This document shows, one piece after another, positions 2,790-50,809 of a stretch of 50,809 nucleotides of DNA (the stretch's first letter is position 1; each line of letters opens with the position of its first letter). The DNA is from Psammoneis japonica (lineage: Eukaryota), in NCBI GenBank assembly GCA_008632985.1, contig QPGO01000156.1, positions 124,001-174,809 of the forward strand, given 5' to 3'. The notes under the pieces were generated by a model. The model was not told the origin of the DNA, made no database searches, and saw nothing but the letters and a program-made list of their open reading frames with translations. The translations under genes were made by a program, and so were the position numbers.

Positions 2790-4280
2790 ATGATGAATGT
2801 GCTTGTCATCGATTCTCTCTAGAGGTGCATCGAACACGTCGCTCACACATCTCTTTGCTGCTCACCCCTCTGGCCAGTGCAGCAGCCAGAGAGTCAAGGG
2901 ACAAAGCGATCTGCAAGAGACTCTTCAAAAACACATGCACCGGGAGTTGCCAGAGTTTTGCCATTTTTTCTTTGACATTGTGGCCCGCCGCTGCTTTGGG
3001 TGCACCCGTTTTGTGTTGTGCTGGCATTTTGGACAGGCTGTTGCTGCTTGTCAGCTCTGCCCCCCCTCCCCTGCACACCATCCATGGGGGTGCGCAGCCT
3101 GCCAGTGCGACAAAAACGCTCGTCGGCTCATTTGGTGGTCATGGCTTGCTCTTTCTCCCCCCAACAGATTTGTTGAAACTGCTGTGTGCCACCCCTCCTG
3201 ATTGCTGCAGAGCAGAAAGGGAGGGCACACTTTGCTTTGCTTTGCTTTGCTTTGCTGAGGTGCATGCAGGGTGCATGTGCCAGCCCCCTTCATCACACAC
3301 CTTGTTGTGCTTCTCCCACCTTCAGGCAGTCACCCATCAGCCCGCCACATTCACACACAATGTCTGCATGTGATCTGGCATTCTGCCTCTCCCTTTGGCA
3401 CCCTGGGCACCACCTTTTCTCCATCATTTGTTGTGTGTGTGTCAGAGTGCACTTTTGTCATCATCATTGTGAGGAGTTTGAGAGCGAGTTTTGCTTGCAG
3501 CCCATGCCGCCTCCTCCCTTTGTGGTTTTCTGGCCAGAGCTTTAACTCCAGGTTCCCTTTGCATTTGTTGCCCCCAGCTTGAGATCTGGTGCTTCTGGCT
3601 TGTGGTGCCACAAAACCAGCCAGAGAGCCAGTCCAAGAATGCACCATCAAATGTGCCACACCAGAGAACAACAGAGTCAAGAGTGATGGAGGGCAATCAA
3701 CCCATCTGTTGCAGAAAAATTTTCCCACCAGCCATCTCAAATGTTGCTCTCAAGCAACTGTTGTGCAAAACCCCCTTTTTCTTGGTTTGCTTGCCACTTG
3801 TTGCCTTTGAAAGTGTGCTTCCTGACGAGTGCAGCACAATTCAAAAATGATGCTGAATGCTGTCACCCAGTGCAGAAAACCCACAGCCAGCATTCCCAAG
3901 TTGTCCATGGCTTCATTTTGTCATTTTGTTCCTCCTTCTCCTCCTCTGACACTTCATCTGGGCTTGTTGTTTTTTTGGTGACAGCCACATTGCTGGTGGT
4001 TGCTTTTTGTTCAACTTGCCCTTCCTCCAGTGCCATTCTTTCTTGCCTTTGCTGCACCAGATGTCAAAGTTGTTTGAAACACTCTGCTCCTTTGCCCCCC
4101 CCCCCCCGAGTCACACTGCTTTTGCTGGGTTGGTGGTGCAGCTGTTGGCTGTGGTTCCACCGCAGACGAGATGGATCTGCTGACTTTTTGGACGACTGGC
4201 AAGGCATGCTGTTGCTGCAAACATGTTTAGATTCTGTGACACTGACACTCCAGAATGTTTGCATGTCAGAGCAATTGAAA
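2790..4280. other. Hypermutated degenerate block of unknown origin
   Basis: Almost no TA or CG dinucleotides and TG/CA-rich. Only spurious Cys/His-rich, Tyr-free ORFs. Boundaries approximate. Confidence 0.6.
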
Positions 4281-4289
4281 GCTGTCGCA

Positions 4290-6477
4290 ATTTTGGAGCC
4301 TGTGTGGTTGCATGGGCTGTTCCAACATGATGAATTGCACCCCAGCATGAGTCGCCAACCCAAAAGTCACCAGAGTTGTGGCTTAAATGTTGACTCTCTC
4401 ACAAGTGACAAAGGTCGGCAAAGATTGCACAATCCTCTGACATGCATCGTCTGGTGGCGTTGGTTGCTCTGGCAATGTGAGCAGTTTCATTTTCATGGAC
4501 CAGACCCACAACAGTCCTTGATTGGTCTTTTGCATGTTTCTGAACAACTCGGACTGCACATTTTGAGCACAATGCAAAGTGGGTGGGTGATGCTGGATTG
4601 AGAGGAGCAATTGACCAAGTTCATTGCAAGCTCGGGCGTTTCTTTCTCTAACCCGTCCATGCCCATGTCGCAGGAGGTGCGCTGCTGCATGCTTTCCTGG
4701 CTTCAATCCCGGATCCTCAATGTTTTTCGATGTTGCCTTTGCCAAGGAGGGCAACCGCATGAAGATTGTGAGTGGAACATTTCACTGGGAAGGCCATCTT
4801 GTGTTGTGCTGATCCACTGTTCTCAGCATGTGGCACTGCCATCATTGTGTTGGACTCGCAGATGCACAATTGTTGTGTCATCAAAGCCCTCCAGCGCTCT
4901 GTCGATTCGGCGGAACTCCGTGAGTCATCGTTCAGTTTGGATTCCATCCAAGAAGACAGTGTCTGAGCAAATCCACCAGGAGGAGGGGCGAACAATTCTT
5001 GCAACTGATGAGGCTTGTCCCAGAGTAAATGAGAGGTGCGTGGGTCGTAAAGGCTTAAGTTGATCGGCCGAGAATGTCAATCGGTGGTTCAAACTTCGTG
5101 GGCTTACATTCAGAGGCAAGTCGTGCTTTGCCATCCGTCCAATCAAAACTGATCAACGCATGTTTGTCATTCGGTTGAACGCATCGCGTCCCACAAGACC
5201 AATTGCCACTCATCAACAGGCCCCAATTGCCAAATCCACCCTCATTGTGCGACACACAATTCCCCAGCCCAATCAGATGCAAGTCTCTAAACATTGAGCA
5301 AAACTCTGAGGGATGCCGATCTTTCCAGTTGTTGGCCTTTTCCAAATGTAAAGGATTCTCGTCATCATGAATGGACGCGATTTTTGTGGACTTGTTTGCT
5401 CCGTACTCTGCAGCGAACTTTGCAGCGTCTTTGGAATCGGTCGCAAAGAAAATCGGACTGCCAGGGTTAAGACTGGACGCGCAGTTCAGAGCTGTTGATG
5501 CCATGGCGTGGATTCGGTGAAGAGGCCGACTCTGTGTTTGACAGAAGACCCGCAAATGTGCAGATGTGCACTGTCCGGGATTTAAATCCATGGTCTTCAA
5601 ACTTTCTTGCATCATCATTGCAATGGGTGGGACTGGAGCAAAGACGACTCATCACAAATCATGGCAAATCGCCCAAAATGTTGTTTCGTTGGCACGCTCG
5701 TCAAACCATGGTGCACCAGCATGACAAGACTGATGACGCGACAATGCGACAAACATTTCTGATCGACTGAGCCTCTCGAGTGCTCGCATTTCCCGTGCGA
5801 AGGGCTTTCGTGGGAGTTGGGGTCCAAGCCAGTCCGGAATGTGCCAATCCAGTCCGCCCTGCAGTGGAAGTAAGAAATTCTCCAGCTCACACGGTCACTC
5901 CCATCGAATCAGTAGAATGCGCTTTGTGCAGATAATTTGCCAACATTGTCATGGCAGGTGTTGGTTTGATTCGGTCTGCAGTCCCCCCACAGCGACGGTC
6001 GTCCTCCAGACACTGCATGATTGGGAATTGTTTTGTCTTCCAGTTGTCCTGGTTTGGCTCCATCATTTGCCCTTGATGCCACTGAAGACAATCTTTCATC
6101 CACTGTGGAATTGTGGTTGATTCATCCCATGAGTTGATGGGTTCTTTTTCATGAGTTCTGCAAAGAAAATCAATGTGTTTCTTTCCAGAAGTGGCTGTCT
6201 GATTTGGTTTTGGCAAAGTTGGTGGCTTGCCAATGACAAAATTTTGTGCTCTCTCTGAAATGATTTCAGAGTTTGAGTTCTCCGGAGAGTTCCTACAGCA
6301 CATCATGTGCAGTCCAAAAATCAAAGGCAGCTGCAATGTTGCCAACCGCACGAGAATCATTTTGGGATGGCGCATGCAAGGTTGAGCTCGATTGACCTCT
6401 GCATTCTCTCTCGGCAGTTGTTTGTGATCCTCTTCATGTCTTGTCGTTCTTTCAGCTCGACTGCAGACGGGAGCCAT
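4290..6477 (-). pseudogene. Hypermutated pseudogene of the tandem fucosyltransferase-like family
   Basis: Fragments MAPVCSRAE.., CGGTADRIKP, IFFATDSKDA, DLHLIGLGNCVSHNEGGFG and PGKHAAAHL align to 29..2503 and 9423..11909. It has frameshifts, an internal deletion near 5070 and many Tyr->Cys/His changes. Confidence 0.9.
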
Positions 6478-6949
6478 TCTTTGGCCTTCTTCAGCAATGC
6501 TCTTGCTGTGTTGTCGATGGCCGAGGTTGTTTCATGGCTGCAGCAGGACGGAAAGCTGGGAGCATCGTCAGAAGGCAATGGATTCTAATCAATGATGACA
6601 TTCCATCTTTGTGCCCTGTGGGCATTCAGTTTGGTGCTTGGGGATCGTACGAGATCAGCTTGGTCGTGGTTCAGTGCAAAGGAGGTGTGTCTTTTCTGCG
6701 CAGTTCTACGTGAATCCCGTGTGGACAGACCGTGACTCCAATGCGCTGCTGCATGTGCTGCACGGCACTGTGCATGCCGGCACTGTTGCTGCACAAGCAG
6801 GGCCCACCGGTGTGACAGAGCCCTCTCTACTCTAGAGAGATGACGAAGCAAAATGTCCGTACACTCGCGGCCCACCCTTTTTCTCTCCATCCCCAAGCGC
6901 ACTCCACGCAACCCTTCCACCACACATTGTCTCCTGACCCACCTCTTCC

Positions 6950-8950
6950 AACACCACAGACCCTCTGATCACTGACAAGCACGCCACTGCCTGCGCAGCC
7001 TTTTCTGTGTTGCTTTTGTGGAGTGCATGTGTTTTGGTTTTGGCGACCCCTTGTGAAACGGAGTTCACATTGTGCGCATCAAAATTCCTGCAAAAAATCT
7101 TTTGCAGCACAAAGCAGGTCCACTTTGCCATGAAGAGCTGCGCCACCGCGCTGTGTTGCTCAAAAAATGGGGACAGCAGATTGTTCATTCTTGGGCTTGA
7201 AAGATCAGCCCCCGCTCAGTTTGTTTTGCACTCAAAGTGTCTCTTGCCATCACCACACAACAATGATTTCCGCACTTGCGTGTCCATCACTTGCGTGTCC
7301 ATCAAGGCTGCCGGCGAGGCAAGCCAAGGGTTGCACCATGCTCAAAAGATAAGCACCACAAGCAAAAGCAGAGCAAATGTCACAAAAAGTGGAAATTGCA
7401 AGATTGGGTTTCACTCTGCAATTTTGGGTTTCTCCAAACAAGTTCTGAATGATGGCCCAAAGCATTTGCACTGCTCCCACAGAGCAGGGGGCTTTCAGAA
7501 AATCCAATTGTGGCACAACAAATTGTCTGGACACAACCAACATTGACGTCTCATGTGCCAACATCATCTGTTGACTGTGCTTGCAATTTTAGACATCCAA
7601 CCAATTTTGTGTGATTGATCTGACCTTCGCACACATCCACAATTGTCGCATGATTGACATGTGCAATGACACACAACCACAATTTCTTCCACTTGACAAT
7701 GTGCTGCAGGGTGGCAAAATTGTGAGTTCACAGGTTTGACACTTGCAGAGGTGATTTTGGGCACATTTCATTTGTGCTCCAATGTGCACACACAGTTTCA
7801 GCCTGAGGAAAGCCCTGTTTGACAATGTCCACATGTTTCACGTTCAAGACAGCAACTCCACACCAGCAAAGAAAAAGCCAATCTTCTGAACACACACAAG
7901 TCAACCCACAGAACCCAAACTCCCTGCTTTGCTGCCTCCTCTTCTCAAGAAGCACACCACCACATCTGCTCCATGTGGCATCAACTGGCACACTGCACTT
8001 GTGCTGTCACAACACAAAAAAATGCACGTGCTGAAGCAACTTGGGCAAACAAAACATGTTGCTCCATGCAGAGTTCTGTGAGTGTTGCTCAATTGTGCAT
8101 GTGAAGGTGTTCTTCTGCTGCATGTCTGCTGGCATGAACATTTTTGTCATTCCATTGGTTTGAAAGTGCTTTTTGCGCAAGGCAAGCACAAACGACAAGC
8201 TGCTGTCAAGTTTGTGGTGTCCAATCCCCAACAATGTGCAGCTGTTTGCACCAGAAGTTTTGTCAATTTTTGTTCACTCATGAGGGGAGCAAAGAATTTT
8301 GCTCTTGACAAAATCAAAAAATGACCCTCTTTGTGTTGTGTGCAGTGCACAACCAAAAAAGCAGCAAACAAATGAGAAATGATGACCCCATCTAGCACCC
8401 ATTTTGGTGCACCACTGCAGCAAGTTTCATTGCCATCAAAAAACACACACAAATGAAAGAGACACATTTTTGTTTTGTGGCCTCATTCCCAAGTTGGCAG
8501 CTTCATGAAATGTGTTTGTGCTGTGCACTAAAACACCCAGTTTTTGCACTCACAGAGTTGGTGGAACACATGCTGCATTGTGAGTTTGGCCACTTGTGCC
8601 TCCCTTGCAGATGCAGCACCAGGAGGTTTGCTCCCCCCCCTCCCCTGCTAACTCGCCATTCACAGGGCAGCCATGGTGAGGCATGTCATGAGGTTTCCTT
8701 GGTAATTTTTCCAGCAGAGTTGACCTTGCCACCTCCACCCTTTTATCCTTTTCCTCCTTGTCATCATCAGAATCATTTTCAGTTTGGCAAAAGTTGGCAA
8801 CACCCAGCTCTGCTCCTTTTTTGTTTGTCTTCTTGCACATGTTGTGTGTGCTCGCCAAGCGACTCATTGGCTTGAAATTTTCATTCTTGAGAGTCATCGC
8901 AGCAGCTGGGGTGGGGCTGACAAGGGTGACAGAAAGCGCTGACAAAATCA
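6950..8950. other. Hypermutated degenerate block, probably an old TE
   Basis: TA- and CG-depleted, with an abrupt return to normal composition near 8965. No recognisable domain. Confidence 0.55.
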
Positions 8951-8954
8951 AAAG

Positions 8955-9288
8955 ATGATGAAATGATTACAGATCAGTTGGGAGTTGCAGATTCGGGCAT
9001 CGAAGCATCGCCACGTTTGTTGTTGTGCGCAATTCGATGACAGACTTGTACAGTCGAATTTGGTGCGTTTGTGAGCTAATATACGCAAGCAATCTAGGAT
9101 TGATACCGGAACATACGTTTGTTACGGGTCCTGATTGCTTTGCTGGTTTGTGCACGAGATGCATTGACGCTGAGGCCACAAGAATTGAAGATAAGGCCAA
9201 GATCCTGCAAGTTTTGCTTAATTTTCATAGTTACCAGGAAATCGACGATTTCATTGATCAGTTTCGAGCCCAGGAAGCACCTGACTAG
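8955..9288 (+). pseudogene. 5'-truncated, frameshifted remnant of a 'RLWCVYE'-motif (HET/TIR-like) family gene
   Basis: Reads ITDQLG..EASP, then after a frame change FVVVRN..DLYSRIWCVCEL..CIDAEAT..DKAKIL. The 5' part is replaced by the degenerate block. Confidence 0.4.
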
Positions 9289-9422: not shown

Positions 9423-11909
9423 TTAGGTTGGCCGGTCCAGCCACTTGCAGGGCCTCGAACGCATTATCGAGCCTGTCGTCGTATGAGACATGCCACAGGA
9501 TGAATTGTACCCCAACAGAAGACCCCACGTGCCAAAGCCACCAATGTTGTGACTGAGACATCGACTCTCTCCGAGGAGATACAGGTCGACGAAGATCGAA
9601 TAGTATTCTGATGGATGTCGACTAGTAGCATTGATTGCTCTGTCAATGTGAAGCGGTTCCTCGTCGTGGATCAGGCCCACAATTTTCCTCGACTTTTCTT
9701 TTGCATACTTTTGAACGACTTGGACTGCATATTTAGAGTCCGATGCAAAGTAGATAGGTGCGCCTGGACGCAATTGAGAAGCGCAATTGACCGCATTGAT
9801 GGCAAGTTCAGACGTTTCTTTTTCTGGCCGACTCTTTCGTCCATAGGTTGCACGGAGGTGCGCTGCTGCGTACTCTCCAGGCTTCAGTCCCAGATCCTTC
9901 ATGTTTTTTGATATCACCTTTGCCAAGGAGGGCGACGGGGTAAAGATGGAGTGAAACATTTCATGATAAAAGCCATCGTGTGTTGTGTTGGTCCACGTTT
10001 CATAGTACGTAGAGCCACCACCGGTGCTTTGGACTCGCAGACGCACAATTGTATCATCAAAGCCATCCAACACTCTATCGATCCGGCGGAGATCCATAAG
10101 CTTCTTCTCATCTTTTAGTTTGGATTCCATCCATGAAGGCAATGTCCAATTAAGCCCTCCAGGAGGAGGGACCAAGAATTCTTCTAACCGACAAGGCTTG
10201 TCCCAATAAATGAGGAGGATTCTGTTGGTTCGGTTCGCCAGGTAGAGGATGGCTGGTAAAGGCTTGAGTCGATCTGCCGTACCACCACACTTGTCATCCT
10301 CAAGTGTGCACACCATGATGAGAAACTTTTTAGACCTCCAATTTGTTTCTGACAAGTCCTCACGCTCGATTGCGTGCCATCGAAAGTACTCCTCCAGCCA
10401 CGTTGGTAGAGTAGAGGACGTCGTTCGTCTGGAGTACAGTTTGACCGCTTTGCTTTTGTTCTCGTTTTTCTTCAGAACAATTCCCATCGGCTGTTCAAAC
10501 TTCACGGGCTTGTACGCATAACTCGGTTTCGGCTCACCGTCAGTCCAATCGCACCCAATAAGCGAGTGCCGTGCGTCACCCGTAACATATCGCATTCCGC
10601 AGGATGAATTGCTACTCATCATCAAGCCCCAGTTCCCAAACCCGCCCACATTGTAGGATACACAATTGCTAAAACCAATAAGGTACAAGTCTCGAAATGT
10701 GGCATAATATTCTGACGGATGGCGATCCCTCCAGTTCTCCGCTTTCTCCAGATGTAGCGGACTCTCGTCGTCGTGTAAACTGACGATTTTTCTCTTATTT
10801 GCAGTGGCAAACGCCTGAGTGAATTTTACGGCATCGCTCGAATCCGTAGCAAAGTAGATTGGACTGCCAGGGCTGAGCTTGGACGCGCAGTTGAGCGCAT
10901 TGATTGCCATTTTCTGAATATCATCAAGGGGTCGAAACTTTATCCCATACAAGGCACGCAAATGCGCCGCAGCGTACTGCCCAGGATTCAAGCCGAGTGA
11001 CTTCATGTTGTGTTGAATCATTGCTCCAATGGGTGGGACGGGAGAAAAAAAGACTCTCCACAAGTCATGGTAGACTGCAACAAAGGTTGTTTCGTTCGTA
11101 CGCTCGTCAAACCATGTTGAACCAGCATTATAAGCCTGATAGCGCATCAATGCCACTGCTGAGTTTGATTCGGCAAGTCTCATGCCTAGTGGAATACCCG
11201 GTGCATAAGGTCTACGAGGCAGTTGAGGTTCAAGCCATGCAGGAACCCGCCAGTCAACGCCACCTATCGGTGGTAGTAAGAAATTCTCAAGCTTACACGG
11301 TCGTTCCCATCGAATCAGGAGAATACGATTAGTGTAATTTGCCAACATCGTCATGGTTGGTATGGGTTTGAGTCTGTCAGCAGTACCTCCACAGTGCCCA
11401 TCTTCCTCTAAGCATTGCATGATTAAAAATCGTTTCTTTTTCCAGTTCTTATCGCTGAGTTCTGCCATTTGTTCTCTATGCCATTTCAGGTAATCCTTCA
11501 TCCACTGAGGAATCGTTGTTGAGTTATCCCACAAGTTAACCGATTTGTTTTCCCATTTTGTATACAAAATTGAAGTGTCTGCATTATCAAACGCTGTTAT
11601 ACGTTTCGACTTTTGCACAAGTGATTGCCCAGCTTGAAAGCTCTGTAAGCGATCCGCAACCATTTGTGACTGTGACGGGTAAAACGAACTCAAGCTGTGC
11701 ACCGCGTGCATTCCAATAATTATACCCAACTGCACAACCATCAGGAAGATTAGAAACAGTTTGCAGCATCCCATTCGACGCTGCGTCTCATTCTTGTAGA
11801 CTCCGTTCATGCTGCCGACGTTCCCAAGCCCGTTTGTGTTTGCACCGCTGTTTTTCCCCCTCGGTATTATCTTTGTCTCTAACGATTTTGATGATTTCAG
11901 CCACTTCAT
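9423..11909 (-). CDS. Type II membrane protein with two tandem fucosyltransferase-like domains, paralog B
   Basis: 828-aa intact ORF, colinear with 29..2503 and with the same duplicated motifs. Confidence 0.8.
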   Translation of the reverse strand: MKWLKSSKSLETKIIPRGKNSGANTNGLGNVGSMNGVYKNETQRRMGCCKLFLIFLMVVQLGIIIGMHAVHSLSSFYPSQSQMVADRLQSFQAGQSLVQKSKRITAFDNADTSILYTKWENKSVNLWDNSTTIPQWMKDYLKWHREQMAELSDKNWKKKRFLIMQCLEEDGHCGGTADRLKPIPTMTMLANYTNRILLIRWERPCKLENFLLPPIGGVDWRVPAWLEPQLPRRPYAPGIPLGMRLAESNSAVALMRYQAYNAGSTWFDERTNETTFVAVYHDLWRVFFSPVPPIGAMIQHNMKSLGLNPGQYAAAHLRALYGIKFRPLDDIQKMAINALNCASKLSPGSPIYFATDSSDAVKFTQAFATANKRKIVSLHDDESPLHLEKAENWRDRHPSEYYATFRDLYLIGFSNCVSYNVGGFGNWGLMMSSNSSCGMRYVTGDARHSLIGCDWTDGEPKPSYAYKPVKFEQPMGIVLKKNENKSKAVKLYSRRTTSSTLPTWLEEYFRWHAIEREDLSETNWRSKKFLIMVCTLEDDKCGGTADRLKPLPAILYLANRTNRILLIYWDKPCRLEEFLVPPPGGLNWTLPSWMESKLKDEKKLMDLRRIDRVLDGFDDTIVRLRVQSTGGGSTYYETWTNTTHDGFYHEMFHSIFTPSPSLAKVISKNMKDLGLKPGEYAAAHLRATYGRKSRPEKETSELAINAVNCASQLRPGAPIYFASDSKYAVQVVQKYAKEKSRKIVGLIHDEEPLHIDRAINATSRHPSEYYSIFVDLYLLGESRCLSHNIGGFGTWGLLLGYNSSCGMSHTTTGSIMRSRPCKWLDRPT

Positions 11910-12429
11910 ATTTACTCCTTTGAAGAAACGTGCTCTTGCTCTTTGGGCGCGGGTTGGTTTGTGGTTGTCTTCTCTACCGGTGGATGCCGTTGCTCACTAC
12001 GACGGCAATAGTCATTGTCGCCGAAATAATCTCGAATGAGAAATTTGGAAGGCGTTCGCCAAGCGAGCGAGTGACAGACGGTGAACAATCGAACTGATCA
12101 ATTCGCGTGCGCTCAATCCATCGTTGCGCGCGTTCAACGGATTGAGGTCCAGATTAGAATTCTTGTAGGTTCCTACATACGAAGCTTTCCTGTAGTTTCT
12201 GTACTGGAGCTTTTCGTATTCAACGCACCCGTCAAATTTCGAAAATTTGCTTCCAACGCCGTTTCAGTTCCAAAACGCTGACATGAAATTCAAAAGAACA
12301 ATCCACAAAGTAGACAAAGTGGCTGCTACAAAGCTCAGTTAAACCACTATACCATCCTCATCCTTCATTCATATCCTTTAGAAACGGAGAAAGTGTCGAA
12401 ATATCTCGAAAGTACCTTACCCTACCGCC

Positions 12430-14121
12430 ATGCTTCGTTCTGTCGTTCCAGAAGAAAATGAGTTGATGACGTTGTGTAAAAGCAAGGCCTGGAAATCTGC
12501 AATCGCTCGAGCAGAGTCACATCCATCAGAAGCAGAGATATCAGACATTGTTTCAAGCGGTTTTGGGTCTACAGTCCTTGCGACGGCTGTGCGATGCGGT
12601 GCACCCAAGCGTGTGCTTCAAGCCCTCGTCAAGGCCAACGTCCATCAAGTGGGAATTGCAAACTCCCGACGGGGCACCGTCCTGCACGAAGCTCTTTCTC
12701 ACCGCTGCAATGTAGATGTCTTGCAGTACTTGCTTCAAAGTTTGATTCAATACGAACGAACACATAATCGAAAAAAGCTCAATGTGTTCAAGGTGCGCGA
12801 CGATTTGGGCCGAACTGTTCTGCATCATCTAGTTCATCACAACTTGCGAGAAGCTCTTCTTGAAGATAATGGTAGGACGTCGGCCAATTTTTCCATGTTT
12901 CGTACACTGGTACTTGCGTGTCCGGATGCGATTGGAAAAATGGATGCCGACGGATACACTCCTCTCATGCTTTTGCTCAGCGTTATTCATCGCGACGAGG
13001 GAGTCGAAGCCCAGCTGTTTCGAATGGTCCAACTCTTGGTGGCGGCGTATCCTCCTTGTGCTTCTATTTCCCGTAAATCAAACACACAACAGCGACACGT
13101 CTGTCATCCCGATTGTTGTTGTAATGATGAAAAGACTTGCACCCTTGTCGGTGATGGAGCACCCAATCCACTCTCGACAGCCCTATTGTATGGGCGAAAG
13201 CAGGACATAATCAATGTTCTGCTACATGCTAATGACAAGGTTGGTGCCAATGCATGCATGTCCATTATCAGCCAACACCATGAAGTGCCACTTCACGTGG
13301 CTGTTACTATGCGAGCACCACCATCGACCCTTTCTCGATTAATTGAGCACGGCAGTGGCGCGGTTCATGTCTCGGATAAGCACGGCCTGGCACCTTTGGA
13401 CTGGTTGTGGATTCGCTTTGTGGTGGATGTGTGTTCCACTCAGCCTCCACTATCTCCAGTCATGGTGTCGAAACGGCGGTACGTCTCCAATCAATTTCTG
13501 GAATGGCACCGACGCGTCACGGAACAATTGAAAGACCGGGAGTCGCTCGATAAGATTGGCACAGTCTTACGAGACCAATTGTGGCAACGGGCAAGTCAGC
13601 TTATCAAGGCTGCAGTTCAAGATGACATGCCTACTCTACACACCGCGTGCTCGGTCACATGTCCTCTTGCCTTGGTGAGACTAGCTTTGGAAGAATGTCT
13701 CCAAAAACAGTTCATTACTCGAGACAGTCGCGGTCGACTGCCTTTGCACTACGCAGCCGAACGTCTTTCATACAAGGCACAAGTCCCACTTGGCGTACAG
13801 AAACGTCTCTGCAGTGTTCAAGAAGAAGAATCTCCCGCTGACTTGTTGTTGGAACGTTTCCCAGAGGCGACTCGCGTGGTGGATAACCAGCACCAGTTGC
13901 CTCTTCATATTGCTATTGATTGTTCCAAACAACGAGACGTAAACAATGACAGCGTCGTTTGCAGCCTCTTGTCCAAATACCCTGATGCGCTGGAACGTCG
14001 AGATGGCAAGACAAAGCTGTTTCCTTTTCTTCAAGCAGCGGCTGGCAATGGTGCTCACACGAGCACTATTTACACCCTGCTTCGCGACCACCCTACACTG
14101 GTTAATTCTGGATTACAATAG
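12430..14121 (+). CDS. Ankyrin-repeat-like protein
   Basis: 563-aa ORF with repeated ankyrin-like motifs GTVLHEA, GRTVLHHL, GYTPLMLL, VPLHVAV, GRLPLHYAA, LPLHIAI, and C-terminal LFPFLQAA. Confidence 0.85.
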   Translation: MLRSVVPEENELMTLCKSKAWKSAIARAESHPSEAEISDIVSSGFGSTVLATAVRCGAPKRVLQALVKANVHQVGIANSRRGTVLHEALSHRCNVDVLQYLLQSLIQYERTHNRKKLNVFKVRDDLGRTVLHHLVHHNLREALLEDNGRTSANFSMFRTLVLACPDAIGKMDADGYTPLMLLLSVIHRDEGVEAQLFRMVQLLVAAYPPCASISRKSNTQQRHVCHPDCCCNDEKTCTLVGDGAPNPLSTALLYGRKQDIINVLLHANDKVGANACMSIISQHHEVPLHVAVTMRAPPSTLSRLIEHGSGAVHVSDKHGLAPLDWLWIRFVVDVCSTQPPLSPVMVSKRRYVSNQFLEWHRRVTEQLKDRESLDKIGTVLRDQLWQRASQLIKAAVQDDMPTLHTACSVTCPLALVRLALEECLQKQFITRDSRGRLPLHYAAERLSYKAQVPLGVQKRLCSVQEEESPADLLLERFPEATRVVDNQHQLPLHIAIDCSKQRDVNNDSVVCSLLSKYPDALERRDGKTKLFPFLQAAAGNGAHTSTIYTLLRDHPTLVNSGLQ

Positions 14122-14198
14122 ACAGTCTATTGCTTAGTAGTCTTTTGTCAAATTTTCCGAGGATAGTCGCAGAGCGAGAATACTATTTGTTGGGTGGT

Positions 14199-14819
14199 TC
14201 AATTTCCATTCATGTCGGCATCGCTGTCACTCGCATTATCGCTATCGGTGTTGTACGAGTTTCGGCCAACTTCACACCCTGGAGCCAGATTACGGATTGG
14301 ACGATGACAGAAGCAACCAGGACATTCACAGTAGGTACACACTGTCTCTGTGCATAAGAAAGCAATCAATCCTTTGCCAACGGTTTGAAAACAAACATCG
14401 CAATAACATTCCGAACCCACCGCCACCGTCACTTTCTCGAGGTTATGACCGTCCGGACATTTTGGCGTATGTTCTTCAAGCAAATGTTCCTGCAGAAGCC
14501 TTCTTTTATCTTGCCATTCGCAGCCAATAAATTCAAAAAAGCAGGGAATCTCGAGCTCTGTGCATTTTCTCTCGTGTTCGGCGCCCACCTTATGAGCCCG
14601 GAGGCAGTCCGCGCACGTAATTTCAAGCTCATTGGCGAGCCTCTGCATTGGCTGGTTTGCTCGAAACGAAAACTGCAGGCTTCGGCACTGGGGACAAGCG
14701 GAAATGTCTTTTCCGTCGACGCATTCTTTGCAAGCCAAGGCTCCGCAGCAAGAAGTGCTTTGGCAATCCTTCACGATCTCGTGACAAATGAGGCACTGAA
14801 AATCTTCTGCTCCTGGCAT
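14199..14819 (-). CDS. RING finger + TRAF/SIAH-type zinc finger + Cys-rich domain protein (putative E3 ligase)
   Basis: CLICHE..CCGALACKEC..CPQCR RING; C.F..IGCEW..LQEHL zinc finger; CPDGH..CDVC..C..C..CPGC. The 5' end may extend further. Confidence 0.75.
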   Translation of the reverse strand: MPGAEDFQCLICHEIVKDCQSTSCCGALACKECVDGKDISACPQCRSLQFSFRANQPMQRLANELEITCADCLRAHKVGAEHERKCTELEIPCFFEFIGCEWQDKRRLLQEHLLEEHTPKCPDGHNLEKVTVAVGSECYCDVCFQTVGKGLIAFLCTETVCTYCECPGCFCHRPIRNLAPGCEVGRNSYNTDSDNASDSDADMNGN

Positions 14820-16759: not shown

Positions 16760-16764
16760 ATGTG

Positions 16765-20807: not shown

Positions 20808-20812
20808 ATGTG

Positions 20813-39600: not shown

Positions 39601-40937
39601 AAGGAGGAGGTGATGATCATCAAAAGCAGCTTTCACTTCTCGTTTCGGGTGATATTGGCCGTGCTGTGGATCTCAGTGCCGACCCTCAGGTTGCAAAGCG
39701 GTTGCTCGCGGCTTATGTGGGTTCTTTTGACGACGGTTCTGAAGAGGTGAAGCATGCAGCTGCGTATGCCTTGGGTCGTGCGGCTTTTGGTGCCCATTCC
39801 GTGTTTTTGCCGGCTGTTCTTGATGCTCTCGAGAAGAATACCGAGAAGAAGCAATACCTTCTCTTGTCGTCCCTTCGTGAATTCGTTCAATGTCATCAAC
39901 TTAGTGGCGGAGACGGCATTGCAGCTTTCGTGCCCGAAATCTTACCTCATCTCGTCGCGCACGCCGCAGACAGCGAGGAAGGTGTACGCACAATGGTGGC
40001 CGAGTGCATGGGTTCATTGACTTGTCTTCAGCCAGCACCTTTGCTGCAAAAGTTCCAAGAACTTGTCTCGGCGCATTCAGCTATTGCAGCCGAAGGAGGT
40101 CACGTCGTCGAGGGAGACGAAACTTCGAAAAAGAATGCGCTGATCTGTTGGACTACAGCCACGTCAATCAAATTGGCGATTGCTGGCAAGGCCGATGCGG
40201 CTCAACTCGCAACTTACATGCCTTCGTTCTTGAATCTCCTCAACCAAGAAGTTCTTACGGTCCGAAACGCTGCTCTATTGATGCTGTATTCAGCTGTCCA
40301 CCACATGCCGCAACTTGTGGCAGGCTTGATGAAGGACGTTATGCCATCACTTTACGAGGTCGCCGAGTTGAAGCTCAAGAGAAAGGTGGACCTTGGACCT
40401 TTCACTCATACAGTAGATGATGCGTTGCCGCTACGCAAGGCTGCATTGAGTATCTTTGCCACTTGCTTAGAGAAGCTTCCTGCGAGCTTGGACATTGCGG
40501 CGTTTATGCCGATACTCGCCAAGGCCCTGGGAGACGTGGAAGACATTCAGCTCCAAGCGCATCAGATTGTGATATCCATGTCTTCACGCCAACCCACTTA
40601 TCTCGTGGCGGCGATCGAATCTTTTGTCGACCCTCTTGAGAAGACCATCAACAAAAAGACGGGGCAAAAGCAGGGTACCGAGCTCGAACGGGCTAACGAG
40701 TGGATCAAGAGTGCGTTGCGAGCTATGTTCGCTTTGAGTCACACAGACGGCTCGATGAAGTACGTTTTAGCAGCGAAGATGGCTACGACTGACTTTTCCA
40801 GCGTTTGTTGCTCACCTTTGCTTCCCTTTGCATCTCTTTTCTTGCACAGTTGCGCCAAGTTTGCAGATTTTGTAGACAGGACCACAAAGAACACCAAATT
40901 CGCTTCCATGATAGCGCAACTCGAGGATGAACGCTGA
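36658..40937 (+). CDS. CAND1: Cullin-associated NEDD8-dissociated protein 1 (HEAT repeats)
   Basis: DKDERYMATSDL, YDPNY, DDDSWKVRRSA, RFKEREENCRVD, DQEIKECA, RLKNETTR, EEGVRTMVAECMG and VDLGPFTHTVDDALPLRKAA. GT-AG introns at 39186..39271 and 40760..40849. Confidence 0.95.
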
Positions 40938-43446: not shown

Positions 43447-44678
43447 CTAAAACTGTGACTTGATGGTTCGGGAATGCTGCATGCAACACCCAGATCGCCC
43501 TCTTGCTACCTTGCTGCACCCGTCGATGGTACACTTGCGTCCTCCACCGTGACGAACACAAAAGGGGGTGTTGGACTGGGCACTTCTGGGGCAGTCGGGA
43601 GACTCGCAGCGGCGTCCTCCTCCGTGAGCAGTGCACTTGCCACTCTTATCAACCGCCAGCTTGGCGCAATCTTTTTCTGTGCAGCGGCGACCACCACCGT
43701 GAGCGGCACAAAAGTTGCGGTCTCTGGCACCCTTGTTGCAGCCCTCTACCGTGCATCGCCGTCCACCGCCGTGAGATATACAAAACCGAGTACGGCCCTG
43801 TGCGCACTTGTTACACCCAGCCTTCTCGCAACGGCGGGGACCCGAGTGGGAAGAGCAGTAGGGTGTTCTTCTTGCAGCCGGTTGACTACACGAATCCATG
43901 CGGCAGATCTTTATCGGTTTGGATGAACACGTTTGATACCTTGCTTGTAGTGCCGTCCGACTGCTTGGGAAGAATGGGTGGTTTAGAATCGGAGCCGACC
44001 ACTTTGCAGAGTGGGATCTGCAAAACAAGCAATAGACAAGAAGAGAGAGAGTGAGTCAGAACCGATCAAAAAAATTCTAAGATTACCAAAAATCACCTAA
44101 CGACTCACATTCTTTTCGAGAGCAGAGACATTGAGTGAAGTTGGTGTGATTGGAGATGGTTCGATCTTATCTTGACATTGGGAGAAAACGCTGGCCATAT
44201 TTTGGAGCCTGGATTGCATTAATATCTGCGCTACTGGATCAAGATTGAATGTATTTGCTCCATATGCTGCGTGTAGAGAAAGCAAGTACTTGATACTTGC
44301 TTCAACATTTGACTGGACGTCTCCGCGAGGCCTTTTCCTCAATGCCGGCATTTGGAGAAGAGTAGACGCTTGCGTTACGTTACGCCCACTTGCATCAACC
44401 AGATCCAGCGTAGACCGTGGTGACTCTTGTATTGGAATAATATCCGGCGTTTCGGCCGGTGGGGATGAAGTAAGACCCAACAAAGAAGACTTCGTCAACA
44501 GTGGTGGTCGGCATGGGAGAGCTTTTTGCAAGAGTGCCTGATTCGCTTCTTGAGCTGTGATAACTGGTGCAAGCTTGCGCTTTTTGAGTGGAGGGGGGCT
44601 GGGGGTCGAACGCTGCATCGTGTGAAGAATCTCGGCAATTTCAACCTCGCATGTTCTAGTACTTGCAGCTTCCGTCAT
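43447..44678 (-). CDS. WRKY19-like Cys/His zinc-finger repeat (C-x4-C...HGGGRRC) protein
   Basis: Repeated C....C.K.A.....C..HGGGRRC units in 43447..43900. Probable upstream exon 44678..44109 with a GTGAGT donor; the acceptor is uncertain. Confidence 0.7.
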
Positions 44679-45129
44679 GATGCAGTTCGATTGATTCTGA
44701 ATTCAACTGTCGCAGGTGATGACTTCTTGTCGATGCGAAATGAGAGATAAACGTGTGGACACACTCGAAACAAATGAATTGGATTGCTTTCGTTGTTGAC
44801 TTTAGCAGTGACTCCTCGTTATAATATGACAGCAAGTGTGAAAATACTGGCAGATTACTCTCCACGCACGAAAAAAGTGAGGCGCCATGCAGGATTGACA
44901 TTGACGTCAGGTCGCGTTGGATGCAAATTCAGGAGGTTTGAAATCATGAGTGCGAGGGGCGATATGCTACCATGGAGTACATGTAGAATAGACATTTATG
45001 TGCCGGAAGAAACAAAATCTAATTCGTTTCTATTCTTCAGACATTCGATAAGAAAAATAGAAAAAATTCAATAGTTGCCTATCAAAAAGCGGGTCACAGA
45101 ATCGGAGAAGGGCAATTGTAATGAAGAAG

Positions 45130-47900
45130 GGGGTGTTTTGACCAATCAGCGTTCAAGAACATGCCACTGCTTCTGCCAACACGTCCGGCAACATCTTCCA
45201 GAAGTTTGTTGCAATTTTTTTCGCGCATCACGCAAGTTGAAGTTCAAAACGCTGACCACATCATGCGGAGGATGGCATGGAGGGACCGAATCCTTTCGAT
45301 CTATGGCGTGGGTCACTTTCGATGGTGGTTGCACCCAACACCTTGTCCTGAAAGGTCATGAGCTGTTGCTTTGTGCTGTTCTGTTGGACCTCCGCATGCT
45401 GCACTGCATTGTTTGTTTTCCGCGCAGTCGCCATTTGTCCTCAGGACGAGGGGGTGTCAACAGATGTGCTCTCCAGCCCAAAGCGGGGCTCTGTGTGACA
45501 TGGGCCCAAAACCTTCTGCACATGAGCTCCACAGTTTGCACTTTGGGTGATGAACACATTTGTCTGCAGCACCCAAACAAGTGCCCCGAAGTTTGTGTGG
45601 CACAGCTGAGCATCTCTCAATGTGCTCAAAGCCGTTTGGAAAATCGTGGTGCGCGCACACAAAAATCTCAGAAGTTGCTGATTGGACAGCCCAATGACTG
45701 CACTGCAAAACAACACAAAGTGGCACCAAAATTGATCAGAAATGTGCACATGGGACGTGCGGCACATGAAAAAAATCTGAGTCATCACAGCCGAGGAGCA
45801 GCACGAGGTCCCGCCCACCAGAGCTTGAGAGCGCATCTCAACAAGAGCAAGATGCTGGCTCTGGTGCCACTGACATGGTGCTTTTGTGGGAAAACAGGAA
45901 ATTCTTCATTTTTGTGTCGTTGCAAATTTTCCAACTGCCATTTTTGTCATGCTGCTCACCATCATGAGAGAGGGCCTGAAATGATCATGAGTCAGGAGCA
46001 ATGAGGTTGGAAAGGTCTGCAAAAAGAGAATTGTCAAAAAGGTCCTGGAGCTGGTGAGCAAAATTGCACACATGTGGATGTCAGGTGATGGTCCTTGTGT
46101 GGCAGGTTGTTGTTTTTGAGTTGATTGACTGTGGAAACCATCTCAAGGGGGGCTCACTTTTGGGCTTTGCAACACAAAGGTCCAAGAAGAGGGAGTCTGT
46201 TAGCTGGCAGACACATCTGGGACACCAACAATCCAGGTGTTGCACCTGCAATCAAGGTTCGAAAAAGGAGCAATGTGCAGGATGACATGAGGAGAAGGAT
46301 GAAAGGTGAGCAAGAGAGTGCGTGCATTCAATGGTCATGGACAGGAGTGTCTGACAATTTAAGTGTGATCTCCATTGTTTTTGTCAACACAGCTGCTGCT
46401 TTGGAGGGGCACTGGTTGAGCATGAAGATTTGGCCAAGGGCAGAGCAGACAAAGACACACAAGCATGGTTCTTGGAAACTGCAGTGCCAACTGTGGTGGG
46501 CAAAGCACACAGCTTGGTAGAAGCACAACCAATTTGCTCCAAGAGTGGCTTGCCATTTCATTGGAGACCTTTGCTCTGCTGGTGCACTTAAACTGCTGTG
46601 ACAAGGTGGTCAACATGGCAGAAAAATTGGAAAATGACAATGACATTGCAAGGCAAAGAAAGCTGATGGCAGAGGATGCTGCACCTGCTGCAAAGTGTGC
46701 TGAAACAGCCAAGGGGGAAATGGCTAAAAGGAACCAAGGATGGAGCAAGGAAGGGATCAAAAAGCACAATGAGCTGCACAAGTGGGTGACAAAAGACTGG
46801 GAGGAGAACAAAGGATTTGGCACATGGTTGAGGAATGGAAGCAAGAGAAGGGAGGAGGATGGATGGGCAGTGTTGATGGGAGAGGACCTGCCCTTGCAGC
46901 CAGTGGCTGCCAGCAATGGCACAGAAGCAATTGCAGCAGTGGAAACAAACCAAGCTGGTGTGTGAACATGAGTTGCAGCAAACAACAACATCCAGAAAAC
47001 AGCAAAAACAAAGAGGCAAACTGCAAGGCAATTAAAAGTCCAAGTTGAGAAACAATGGCAGTCACAACATTTGCTTTTAAAGTGCAACAACGCAAAGACA
47101 AAAAATGTGGAAGGGGATGATGCAGGCAAGGATGGTGGATTGTAAGTGGCAAGAGTGGCAATGAAGGAACAACAAACAGCAAATGTTGAAAAGAGTTGAG
47201 AGCAAAATTGTGGGCAAGAATGTGTGCACTTCAAAGCAGGGTGTTGCTTAGAATCAAGAAGCTCACAAACTCAATTGTTTTTGAACCAACATTCAAAGGA
47301 AAACTTGGCTCACAAGTTCACAAATGTGTGGGATTGACATCAAAAAATGGTCAGATTATGACAGGCGGTCAGACCCAGATTGTTGGGGGCATCCCAGATG
47401 CAACAGCTGACCCAATGAAAACTCTTCTTGCACAGCTTGAAGATGATCATTGGCAATCTGATTGAGGTGCCCTTGGAGCAACAGAGATGCAACATGCAGA
47501 CCATGGATGTGGCTTCACTGTTGTGCACTTTGGGAACAACAAGATTGCACTTTGGGGACAACTTGGTCCTCATCAGCAGCAAGAGTTGCAACTCAACCCA
47601 AGCCAAAAAAACAACCACACAGTTGATGTCGGTGATGAACCCATTGGGAAAGTCAGGCAACTCCCCAACAACAAATGATGCAGATGGGCTGAGTCATCAT
47701 TGTTTGGAAAAACAAACTCTGAAGCACCATCAGTGAGTGGCATGAGAGCATTGTCAAAGAAGAAATGATGCAACTCTCATGCTTGCAGCAAAGGACAATT
47801 GGCTCTCAATGGCCAGTGATTGTGTTGAGCAAAAACTTGTGGGGCAGCTGCAACATTCACAAAAAAACTCCTGTTTCAACCATTTCAACAGGGGAAGTGC
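45130..47900. other. Hypermutated TE-like sequence
   Basis: TA-depleted, and CG is also lost after ~45900. Relic ORF at 46465-46965 (ETFALLV..GWSKEGIKKHNELHKWV); family not assigned. Confidence 0.5.
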
Positions 47901-49480
47901 AGTCAATTTGAACTTTTGTCACTTCTTCCTGTGTTGCATCTCTTTGCTGTTGTCATTTGGCTCTTTATCTCCCAAAAATGCCAATTAAGAAATGGCCAAT
48001 TTGTGTGGCAAGTGCAGTCAGAGGTGGGGCTGGAAACTGGCTGCATTTGCCGCAAAGAATGGGTGCTCATTTGTGAGAATGCTGATGGTGCCATTGGCCA
48101 TGTCAGAGTGGTGTGGCATGCATGTGTCAGAGTGGACAGAGGTGGAGGTGAACACAGTCAGCCAAGCCTGCTGCCATTGCCAGGCCAGTGGCTGTTGCAG
48201 TCAAAGCAGCAAAACCCATGGCACACGTGCAGTTCACAGGAATGTGACAGTTGCATGGTGCAGTTTTTGTGCTGTGACACATGATGCTGCAGCTGCCAAA
48301 CAAGAAATCAAAAGATTTGCTGGACAGCTGCACCACATCAAAATGCACAGGCATCTCAGCCATCTTTGTGGGCAATTTTTTGCAATTGCTGCCAACCCAA
48401 GGGGGCATCCTCTGCTGTTCATTTGCAAAGACTTGTGCAAGAACAATGTCAAAATGGTTGAGTTGGGTCAAAATGGTGATCCAGCATGGGGCAAGATTCT
48501 GCCATGATTTGGAACAATTCAAGGGCTGGCTGGAGATGACATCAAGGAAGTCAACAACAAGAGAGTGGTTGCTTCTTGTCAAGGTGACAGGTGATGCCAC
48601 TGGGCCAAAGGAAAGCAACATTGCCAGTGGTGCAACCTGTTGCCATCATCACCAATCTTTGTCAAAGTGCTCTCAACAATGGCATTTTCAAGAAGGTGCC
48701 AATGGAAGTGCAGCACTCAAAATCTCTTGCACAGCCACCTCCAAATCATGCACCAATTGTGATCCACAGAAGCAGCCTCTCAAGTGTAAAAAAGCTGCAC
48801 CCCAGGCAGGAGCAAGTGTGGGGTGTCAAGACAAGCTGTTCAAGGACATCATGCTTGCAGCCCATCCAGACGCTCATGTCAAGCAGACTGGGAGTGATGA
48901 GTTGGGGTGAATTGCCCACTTCTCAAGCTCTGCCATGGCCCCTGCCCTCTGACAATGAGCCTCAACCCCAATGAGGGTGTGGAGAACAAGGAAGCCAGCA
49001 GTGCTGTTGGCTTTTTTGAGGGAGTTGAGTTGAAAGAGAAAGGTGCTTCTTTGGATGATGTGGAGTTGAGGAGGACCAGTGGTTGTTGGGTGAGGCTGGT
49101 CTGTGTTTTCACAAGCTGAGCCTCTGTTGTCTTGATTTTCCCATGTGACTCCATGGAACAAAGAAACATGTGTTGCTCACTTTCCTGTCCCTTTGATGGG
49201 CAATGTTGACAGAAAAACACCAAGAATCAGCCAGAGGATGCAGATGACCCAGTTCCCAGTTCTGCAAAAGAGTGCAACAACTGCACACAAGCTTGGGGGG
49301 GCCAACAATTGACAATTGAAAAGACCTGGTTGCATCAGCATGTTTTGACTGTAGAGACAAGAACTGGGTTTGCATGGCTCTGTCTAGAGCCACAACAAGA
49401 AGGGGGCTTCATTTGAGCAAGAAGCTTGATGACAGGAAAATGAGGGGCATGTTGCTGGCATTGAATTAGCCCCTTTGTCA
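47900..49480 (+). mobile_element. Degenerate Helitron-like PIF1 helicase relic
   Basis: GISAIFVGNFLQLLP (~48350-48394, cf. motif III GDFxQLPP) and NWVCMALSRATTRRGL (49362-49409, cf. motif VI YVALSRV...GL). Confidence 0.7.
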
Positions 49481-49899
49481 TTTTTTAGGCTGAGAAAGTT
49501 CTCAGGTCCCTGCTGCAGATGACTGCACAAGACAGTGCACTCAAAGATTGTCATTGTCAGAAGACATCAATTTTTAATGGCACAGCAGAAATCTGGGCTT
49601 ACACCACACAATTGCTCTTGTTGCTTGTCAGGCTTGAAAACAAGGGGGTTGAGTTTGTTCACTGTTTTGTGCAAGCCAAAAAGCACAAATTCTAAAAACA
49701 CATCAAGTAAAAAAAACAGATCACCTGGCATGCAGATTCTCAACAAAAAAGGGGCAATGCATTGCACATGTGTCAAGGTGAACAATCAAAAGACAAAGAC
49801 AAATGGTGCACATTTGTTCAATGTCAATGACCTCACAACAAAGAAATGGCAAGTCAACTGGCAACAAGTCAATCATTTTCCAAACAAAAAATGAGCAAG

Positions 49900-50750
49900 G
49901 CAACTCCAAATTTGGGGCATTTCATGTTTGTGCATGAATCAATTTATGTTCAGTCCTGTGGCCTTCAAAAGTCATTGCACTCTGTTTTGCAAAATGCAGT
50001 TTCACACCTGATTTCAACACAAGAGCAACTGGTTTTCCTGTCCAATTGCATGGAGAACCATCAAAAAGAGGTTTGAATCTTGGGAGAAAGTTCAGTTGCT
50101 TCTGCTCCTCTGGGGTTGAATGAGTCACTGCAGCTGTCACATCTTTGAGGTTGGCAGCATGACAGCTGGAGTCAAGGATCTTGTTGATCCTGTGTCATCA
50201 AGACCATTCATGGCACATGAGATTCCCCAGTGTGATTGGCTGTTGGCATGAACACCTCAGCATTGAAGAGTGCATCAGCATTCTTCATTGGTGTGGTCAC
50301 AACTTCCCATTTGATTTCTTCATTCACAAAATCAAGTGTGAGTCCAAGACTGCTCATTGGGTCACATCCCATGATCATGTTGCTCGCAGTGACTCAAAAA
50401 AGCAACAGTGCTGTCCACACACACTGTCTTCTCAATCAACTTGTTTTCATCAAATTTGGGCAATGAGAAGTGCACTGCACATTGACTGTCAGCTGTGAAG
50501 AGTCCACCCTTGGTCTCCCAAGTTTGGGTGGTGGATTTCTTTGTTCTCAACTTCCTCATGAATCTGCGTGAAATTGTGGTTGACAATGTTCTGCTGTTGA
50601 GCAGAACACATGAAGGCTTGTTTTCTCTTTTCCAAGAGAAGCGTTCATGTGAGTGATGACTTCTGGACTGGCGTGTGTCACTTTGACCCTTTTTGGGGGT
50701 TTCTCAATGTCCAGCAATGCACAAGACTGCTTGACAGGAGCCAGTCATTC
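49900..50750 (-). mobile_element. Degenerate Ty3/Gypsy protease and pre-RT relic
   Basis: Minus strand CNMIMGCDPMSSLGLTLDF..EIKWE..TPMK (~50384-50290, cf. YDMIIGRDLM..LG..LDF) and LFDGS..WTGKPV.L.LK.G.K. Confidence 0.65.
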
Positions 50751-50809
50751 TGACAGAAATTGAAGGCAAATGGCAAGAATTCAAACAACAACTCCTTGCT
50801 GCTGTCTAA
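50751..50809 (-). repeat. Third copy of the 276-bp LTR family, cut by the window end
   Basis: Identical to 20532..20590 over 59 bp, with a different flank. Confidence 0.92.

Follow-up and report, generated by a model that had tools for sequence, protein, structure and literature searches.

A mutational process that erases the dinucleotide TpA has been observed directly in the rhizarian alga Bigelowiella natans. In mutation-accumulation lines, Mettrop et al. (2026, bioRxiv 10.64898/2026.01.13.699255) counted 231 de novo mutations across two integrated viral regions; 230 were A > G or T > C, all at TpA. According to the main text of that preprint, the rate is ~6e-7 per site per generation, or ~1,000-fold above background; the process is active in 11 of 15 lines; its targets are a 186-kb nucleocytoplasmic large DNA virus (NCLDV) and a virophage; an ADAT2 candidate is proposed; and TpA-depleted coding sequences are enriched in reverse-transcriptase (RT) and DDE domains. 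Here, we analyze a 50,809-bp stretch of the diatom Psammoneis japonica (contig QPGO01000156.1 of assembly GCA_008632985.1, positions 124,001 to 174,809; hereafter, “the window”), in which ordinary genes alternate with blocks that are nearly free of TA. The explanation we consider probable is that the low-TA blocks are silenced transposon and pseudogene islands of the diatom nuclear genome, in which a DNA-level, domain-confined hypermutation has turned the A:T pairs of TpA into G:C.

The footprints in the two algae are alike in that A:T > G:C transitions occur only at TpA, giving TpG or CpA, and in that they are confined to silent or foreign regions while the rest is normal. The host here is a stramenopile rather than a rhizarian, and the mutations of B. 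natans were observed de novo, whereas the window holds a fossil record only. The targets also differ, being here a long terminal repeat (LTR) element, an RT element, a gene duplicate and unidentifiable DNA. The depletion in the window is deeper (TpA observed/expected ratio, o/e, of 0.02-0.12 versus a rho of 0.45 for the B. natans NCLDV), and two of its features, a co-located loss of CpG and a T-A-Y context, are absent from the main text of the preprint, in which “CpG” occurs 0 times and diatoms are unmentioned. We infer that the same kind of process is at work in both. In the literature searched, neither loss nor hypermutation of TpA was reported for diatoms. Mutation accumulation in Phaeodactylum tricornutum revealed a GC > AT bias with CG, CC and TG as mutagenic contexts, and “transposable” occurs 0 times in the available text of that study (PMC6604790). 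An earlier reading of the letters alone (hereafter, “the sequence-only reading”) had taken the pattern for a new process; since the same TpA-only A:T > G:C hypermutation is already on record in B. natans, that part of the claim falls, and what stands is a much deeper instance of a kind reported once before, in a rhizarian alga, and apparently the first in a diatom.

Fungal repeat-induced point mutation (RIP), which depends on RID/DNMT4-type enzymes, resembles the pattern in its wholesale transitions in a dinucleotide context, which inactivate repeats and leave islands of decay next to genes that are intact. RIP takes place in the premeiotic dikaryon as C > T at CpA, creates TpA and lowers GC, whereas in the window TpA is destroyed and the GC content of the blocks (0.47-0.53) is close to that of the genes. 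Animal APOBEC3 (on retroviral cDNA) and ADAR (on double-stranded RNA) are comparable as context-dependent editors of mobile or viral nucleic acid that leave transition-only scars. APOBEC3 gives C > T (G > A), in contrast to the A:T > G:C seen here. ADAR acts on RNA, accepts a 5' A too and prefers a 3' G; in the window, adenines preceded by A are not elevated, a 3' G is unfavourable, and the changes took place in DNA that was already integrated.

We separated depleted from normal sequence by a two-state segmentation of the window with a hidden Markov model (HMM). The six depleted segments (2717-9048, 15181-17986, 18696-22277, 26631-32792, 35179-36046 and 45120-50809, none with a strand) amount to 25,440 bp and contain 117 TA (TpA o/e 0.07), compared to 885 TA (o/e 0.54) in the remaining 25,369 bp. 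Individual segments have a TpA o/e of 0.02-0.12 when depleted and 0.49-0.60 when normal; in 1-kb windows, the values are 0.02-0.19 in blocks and 0.39-0.63 in genic stretches. The segments are grouped below into domains, the second of which was split by the HMM at a tandem-array stretch (17987-18695) where some TA remains.

2717-9048, no strand: depleted domain 1, with 32 TA (o/e 0.08), CG o/e 0.42, TG o/e 1.66 and CA o/e 1.76; it contains pseudogene P, flanked by unidentifiable decayed sequence
15181-22277, no strand: depleted domain 2, with TA o/e 0.05 and 0.12 in its two parts
26631-32792, no strand: depleted domain 3, with 28 TA (o/e 0.08) and CG o/e 0.39
35179-36046, no strand: depleted domain 4, with 1 TA (o/e 0.02) and CG o/e 0.75; inside it lies a decayed paralogue of 14436-14823, 77% identical
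45120-50809, reaching the window end, no strand: depleted domain 5, with 24 TA (o/e 0.06) and CG o/e 0.14

There are 55 TA-free gaps of at least 150 bp in the window. The longest, 1,641 bp at 15180-16821 in domain 2, would, with TA as frequent as in the genes (0.035 per position), have a probability of 1.4e-25, so that the claim of the sequence-only reading that nearly TA-free blocks lie beside normal genes holds. The loss amounts to 87% of expected TA overall and to 98% at most. CpG, on which the sequence-only reading was silent, is depleted in the same segments (612 CG, o/e 0.39, versus 1,460, o/e 0.96, in the normal half). TG and CA together number 5,341 in the depleted and 3,775 in the normal half, a gain of 1,566 that approximates the summed loss of TA (768) and CG (848), while the total of pyrimidine-purine (YpR) steps is unchanged (6,070 versus 6,120). 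A constant YpR total combined with a TG/CA gain that matches the loss indicates that both palindromic YpR steps were redistributed by transitions into TG and CA.

As an outside control of composition, which is not evidence that the process is absent elsewhere, we used 80 metagenome loci (429,498 bp; 737 one-kb windows) that encode relatives of the CAP gene in the window. Their TpA o/e has a median of 0.69 and a minimum of 0.19. No relatives of protein P0123 were found in the metagenome scan. The genic TpA o/e of the window (0.54) is under the median of these related loci, which may mean that the process has left a faint mark genome-wide, or merely reflect the composition of the species. A Pfam search of block ORFs (open reading frames; 36 ORFs at E <= 0.001, genes included; 138 at E <= 0.01; 9 more) found no transposon domain inside the blocks; matches to PRC2_EED_ins and LETM1_RBD in depleted stretches were disregarded as below cut-off and unrelated to transposable elements. 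A self-comparison in purine/pyrimidine code brought out no new large relationships for the unidentified blocks. Being TA-free, the blocks lack TAA and TAG, and long spurious ORFs therefore abound: 209 stop-to-stop frames of at least 75 codons overlap the blocks, Tyr-free and rich in His and Cys.

The direction of change can be read where a depleted sequence has a counterpart. A gene of 825-856 codons, without a Pfam family, is present in three tandem copies on the minus strand; the middle copy, in domain 1, is hypermutated, and the other two are intact.

32-2506, minus strand: gene A, the intact comparator, an 825-codon ORF with TpA o/e 0.6 and no Pfam family
4333-6480, minus strand: pseudogene P, the hypermutated duplicate of gene A, 80.4% identical to 1093-2506
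9426-11993, minus strand: gene B, a paralogue taken as outgroup, ~67-71% identical to A, with normal TpA

Protein A also matches itself internally, which points to an internal repeat. Out of the 57 TA of gene A, only 4 are kept in P, while 39 have changed to CA (21) or TG (18) and other dinucleotides are mostly kept; 30 of gene A's 73 CG read TG or CA in P. With B as the outgroup, A > G on the P lineage affects 42/119 adenines after T versus 20/236 after A, 23/222 after C and 18/222 after G, and the gene A lineage has no TpA bias (2/17). This spectrum agrees with the contention of the sequence-only reading that neither RIP nor decay of 5-methylcytosine (5mC) nor general GC-biased conversion is responsible. 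Identity between A and P rises from 80% to 93.5% when purines and pyrimidines are pooled. P is broken, with matches to protein A spread over three frames and in-frame stops, and the Tyr residues of protein A have become His in 14 and Cys in 22 of 59 aligned positions and are kept in 2 (overlapping matches counted).

Domain 2 provides a comparison within one integrated element.

16765-20807, plus strand: LTR retrotransposon, apparently non-autonomous, with 276-bp LTRs, TGACAG...CTGTCA ends and a 5-bp target duplication (ATGTG at 16760-16764 and 20808-20812)
16765-17040, plus strand: 5' LTR, differing from the 3' LTR at 15 bases, with the same 22 CpG in both
20532-20807, plus strand: 3' LTR, the counterpart of the 5' LTR
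17455-18757, minus strand: 42-bp tandem array of ~27 units, inside the LTR element

The 15 differing bases make up ten events, namely five double CA<>TG, two CA<>TA, two TA<>TG and one other transition. All 15 are transitions, with 0 transversions, and the LTRs become 100% identical after purine/pyrimidine pooling; 14 of the 15 bases lie at TA-derived sites, 9 of the 10 events are interconversions of TA, TG and CA, and 22/22 CpG are intact. As the LTRs were identical at integration and now differ at TA-derived sites, the changes postdate integration. By arithmetic on these differences, 14/28 TA-site lineages changed versus 1 change in ~496 other base-lineages, from which TpA sites would change roughly 100-fold faster per base than the rest of the LTRs; with a single background event, the uncertainty of this figure is wide. 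Among the 42-bp units, two positions vary as TA/CA/TG triads, corresponding to Tyr/His/Cys in the ORF at 17110-19680. This ORF (minus strand, 857 codons) runs through the interior of the element, consists largely of the 42-bp (14-residue) repeat, and has no known domain and no RT. Pfam on the ORFs found no RT domain inside the LTR element, which looks non-autonomous from its sequence. A further LTR copy starts at the window end, where 61 bp (50749-50809) are identical to 20530-20590.

Three candidate explanations were discarded on the strength of these comparisons. GC-biased conversion and selection against UpA in RNA are ruled out by the specificity for a 5' T and by the neutral, post-insertion differences of the LTRs. 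Error-prone repair by polymerase eta (WA > WG), one of the mutators suggested by the sequence-only reading, fails in that A > G after A is only at background (20/236) and in that the LTR differences include no transversion.

Domain 3 overlaps the remnant of a second retroelement.

26229-27740, plus strand: internally deleted remnant ORF of an RT retroelement, with RVT_1-bearing relatives; the YADD motif of those relatives has become HADD in it

At E <= 0.001, the family numbers 13,944 representatives. Among the best 150 of these, a list that favours intact copies, Tyr makes up 0.78-5.9% of residues and 0 relatives are Tyr-less, versus 0/504 residues in the remnant. In an alignment with 62 relatives, all four conserved Tyr columns are changed (Cys in three, His in one), while other conserved residues are kept (Phe 4/4, Trp 3/4, Cys 6/6). 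In the internal duplications of domain 3, the double difference seen most often is CA<>TG (5, 3 and 5 events); the normal-gene control pair A/B has 6 double CA<>TG events among 593 differences. Domain 3 also has a strong A > T skew (+0.15 to +0.20 at 26000-32000, as at 46000-48000 in part of domain 5) and contains 738 CA versus 568 TG. The skew in domains 3 and 5 and the excess of CA in domain 3 could be a strand asymmetry of the process or ancestral composition.

At the level of sequence, five independent comparisons (P and A, the LTR pair, the tandem units, the domain 3 duplications and the RT remnant) agree in showing TA to be the ancestral state, lost in place. The sequence-only reading had stated that TA became TG or CA wherever a counterpart exists, and this is seen in P, in the LTR events, in the tandem triads and in the Tyr columns alike; the converse that it had named as fatal, with TG/CA ancestral, is contradicted by the LTR pair, the A/P/B comparison and the Tyr columns of the RT remnant. 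TG and CA are balanced in the blocks, their heterogeneity over 300-1,000 bp does not exceed that of genes (chi-squared per degree of freedom of 1.3-2.3 in blocks versus 1.45-1.9 in genic DNA), and a runs test for single-strand clustering of P's 39 TA > TG/CA events is not significant (z = -1.43). Together, these three results show that both strands are hit about equally, without long single-strand tracts. TA and CG densities switch together within 100-200 bp of the domain edges, close to gene ends, and promoters and intergenic spacers adjoining genes have normal TA. The idea of a locus-confined mutator of the A:T pairs in TpA, acting on both strands and after insertion, finds support in these results.

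Surviving TA in the depleted segments depend on their flanks: compared to normal segments, there are 0 versus 56 ATAT, 1 versus 103 ATAG and 2 versus 128 ATAC, and 30 versus 71 CTAA and 20 versus 26 TTAA. A multiplicative model with independent survival of the two adenines at each TA site fits all ten tetranucleotides; the survival that it yields per adenine is 0.08 before a 3' T, 0.22 before C, 0.52 before G and 0.86 before A. Read for the adenine, the residual sites show an extended context in which mutability follows T-A-T > T-A-C > T-A-G >> T-A-A.

The flank dependence of CpG is weak and different from that of TpA (survival 0.27-0.85). This, and the retention of all CpG by the LTRs, led us to reject a single process for TA and CG. 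The young LTRs have lost TA and not CpG, while the most heavily decayed blocks (as at 45120-50809) have lost both, which indicates two processes per domain, the one at TpA being faster. We attribute the CpG > TpG/CpA decay in the domains to 5mC. Deamination of 5mC would account for the CpG half of the pattern and fits the DNMT5a methylation of diatom transposons, but it is unable to remove TpA, and the turnover of TA in LTRs with intact CpG makes the two processes separable. The available text of PMC9998398 describes CpG methylation of diatom transposons by way of DNMT5a, and RID-related DNMT4 enzymes in many diatoms.

We also compared the window with contigs of one public sample comprising three coded runs. 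Contigs at a word depth of ~63 match the TA-free sequence, with 0 differences over 14000-16793 and 2 over 29137-32740. Other copies in the contigs differ from the window mainly by transitions (145/182 listed changes). Among the variant places listed (151 further), 31/40 are interconversions of TA, CG, TG and CA; 8 of those listed have TA in the window and CA or TG in other copies, the reverse also occurs, and 4 are double CA<>TG. At 15334-16667 and 29341-32675, contig depth equals that of the flanking genes (at least 90% likeness), yet these stretches are among the most depleted. Over the LTRs, the summed contig word depth exceeds that of the flanks by a factor of hundreds to thousands, a hint of a large family, although depth is not a copy number. 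Of the runs, X2 offers no contigs in the depleted blocks, and those of X3 are confined to the LTR element; such lack of cover is not evidence.

In the process we propose, the A:T pairs of TpA would be converted to G:C, with TpG or CpA as the product depending on the strand hit. The hypermutation would act after insertion and within domains, ahead of and independently from CpG decay, and its cue may be a silent chromatin or methylation domain rather than sequence homology. As side effects, Tyr codons would turn into His or Cys codons and the TAA and TAG stops would be erased. Our leading guess for the chemistry, which we hold tentatively, is enzymatic deamination of adenine to inosine on DNA by a TadA/ADAT2-type deaminase. 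We favor it because inosine miscodes directly, only transitions result, and these enzymes target an adenine preceded by U. In tRNA, the adenine targeted by TadA/ADAT2 is preceded by U (positions 33-34), and the strict 5' T requirement, judged from A > G by preceding base, matches this preference for U/T before adenine.

The same targeting with a different chemistry is unlikely. The thymine of R-T-A would be modified to 5-hydroxymethyluracil (5hmU) or oxidised further by a TET/JBP-type dioxygenase and would then miscode as C. As TpA is palindromic, T > C on one strand is A > G on the other, and the thymine route is therefore inseparable from the adenine route by sequence: every sequence result fits it equally well. 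A parallel exists in dinoflagellates, which like diatoms belong to the stramenopile-alveolate-rhizarian (SAR) supergroup: 5hmU made by TET/JBP homologues is an epigenetic mark enriched in their repeats, for which earlier work had shown a preference for TA and TC, with mutational TpA loss not reported in the available text (PMC11572971). In the window, TC is only mildly lower in blocks (o/e 1.03 versus 1.16), and the transversions that glycosylase processing of 5hmU should yield are missing from the 15 LTR differences. Organisms rich in 5hmU copy it faithfully as T, so that ~100-fold miscoding would need a further step, and we know of no TET/JBP gene or 5hmU in P. japonica.

Distinctly less probable is an account without any targeted mutator, in which a genome-wide TpA lesion or replication error is repaired well only in transcribed or euchromatic DNA and builds up in silent domains. 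The coincidence of depleted edges with gene borders and CpG-decay domains is what it would predict, as is the lowish genic TpA relative to the related metagenome loci. The normal TA of promoters and of intergenic spacers next to genes is at odds with it, and so is the size of the contrast, ~100-fold in the LTRs and 1,000-fold in B. natans, where activity in just 11 of the 15 lines, as given in the preprint, makes the process look regulated.

A homology trigger as in RIP, by which duplicated sequence is recognized and mutated with a base change unlike that of RIP, is very improbable. A retroelement family of great contig depth and the gene duplicate P are affected, as such a trigger would have it. 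Yet RIP mutates both members of a duplicate, and gene A, the 80%-identical partner of P, is unmutated; the two stretches at the depth of flanking genes are most depleted; and the NCLDV target in B. natans is described as single-copy. An untouched gene A and strong depletion at flanking depth are better explained by targeting of a chromatin domain than by homology, and the term “repeat-targeted” of the sequence-only reading has to be given up in the sense it has for RIP.

There is a slim chance that modified TpA and CpG bases in heterochromatin were miscalled as TG and CA (e.g., in nanopore base-calling), making the pattern a sequencing or assembly artifact. Both palindromic YpR steps are affected in the same domains, and miscalls on either read strand would also randomise TG versus CA. 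The match with the independently built contigs speaks against miscalls, as do a conversion that is near complete, graded by context and stably different between copies, the frameshifts and stops that pseudogene P also bears, and the Illumina data that, in the preprint, show TpA > TpG/CpA mutation to be real in B. natans. An artifact is thus unlikely; what keeps it in consideration is that the platform of the supporting reads is off record. Scarcely credible is ADAR-like A-to-I hyperediting of retroelement RNA fixed by reverse transcription, which the ADAR preference for a 5' U (bioRxiv 10.64898/2026.01.13.699255, Discussion) and the retroelements in two blocks would suit, but which is contradicted by an LTR pair of one integrated element that differs at TA-derived sites, by the tandem DNA duplicate P and the flank-depth stretches being affected too, by TG/CA balance on one strand without patchiness beyond that of genic DNA, and by the disfavoured 3' G.

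Several points weigh against TpA hypermutation of silenced islands by a DNA adenine deaminase. The scope is a single window, and the supporting contigs come from one public sample that is perhaps the assembly's own. TA-poor, TG/CA-rich windows number 0/737 in the metagenome loci with CAP relatives, which stem from diatom-like organisms, though those contigs are gene-rich and many are short. The sequence-only reading had every transposable-element block depleted; this is right for two blocks with retroelements, and one further block has a pseudogene, but the other stretches have no Pfam family at E <= 0.01, and most of the depleted sequence is, by its sequence, not demonstrably derived from transposons. 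In the context model, the TA contexts of genes substitute for the ancestral ones of the blocks, and the context effect from A to P has the same direction as in the block model but is weak (0.39, 0.40, 0.35 and 0.21). The TadA target is U-A-C-G, which the observed 3' preference (T > C > G >> A) fits only partly, as U-A-C, and that preference is the reverse of ADAR's. No deaminase gene (HxE...PCxxC core) was found among the ORFs of the window by Pfam. The enzyme, any base modification and the chromatin mark are all putative.

The genes between the depleted blocks are ordinary eukaryotic ones by Pfam: CAND1/TIP120, CAP (adenylyl-cyclase-associated protein), ankyrin, WD40/ubiquitin and an AlkB-type oxygenase. 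Database matches of the CAP protein are almost exclusively from diatoms, and the top identity of 76%, followed by values of at most 61%, indicates a diatom without a very close relative in the database. The CAND1/TIP120 gene consists of two overlapping ORFs in different frames (36637-39186 and 39135-40934, plus strand), presumably due to a short intron or a frameshift. The ORF at 43450-44055 (minus strand) encodes five WRKY19-type zinc-finger repeats (PF24906, E = 2e-38), and several ORFs overlap there on both strands. The AlkB-type 2OG-Fe(II) oxygenase gene (22196-23233, plus strand; PF13532, E = 2e-24) starts at the edge of depleted domain 2, which is probably a coincidence; DNA base-modifying enzymes occur among 2OG oxygenases, and this one is by Pfam outside the TET/JBP family. 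A TA-free patch of 227 bp (14618-14845) lies within a segment called normal, overlapping the 5' part of an ORF (14202-14843) with weak zf-TRAF/Sina matches. The patch belongs to a short repeat with further copies at 23535-23766 and 35361-35747.

A wider reading, doubtful as it stands, is that TpA-erasing hypermutation is an old, heterochromatin-coupled genome defence shared across the SAR supergroup, being seen in a diatom and a rhizarian; the 5hmU that dinoflagellates have at TA in repeats might be related to it. A single enzyme system would then read silent domains carrying CpG methylation and edit R-T-A-Y steps on double-stranded DNA, and transposons, integrated viruses and stray gene copies would be disabled through the loss of Tyr codons and of two of the three stops. 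Such a defence would parallel fungal RIP, but it would be vegetative, independent of homology and opposite in its base change.

If TpA hypermutation is the correct explanation, the window holds the deepest footprint yet seen of a mutational process first described in 2026 in a distant alga, and the process would shift from a single-species curiosity towards a widespread eukaryotic way of destroying mobile and foreign DNA. The window contributes three facts open to test: the mutations arise in place once the element is inserted, they far outpace CpG decay, and they have a T-A-Y context. For genome annotation, TA-free DNA is a trap, as its few stops offer many long false ORFs to gene callers and decayed transposons escape domain searches. 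Diatoms dominate ecologically, and as several of them are amenable to genetics, knockouts and reporters could reveal the enzyme, the chromatin cue and the link to CpG methylation.

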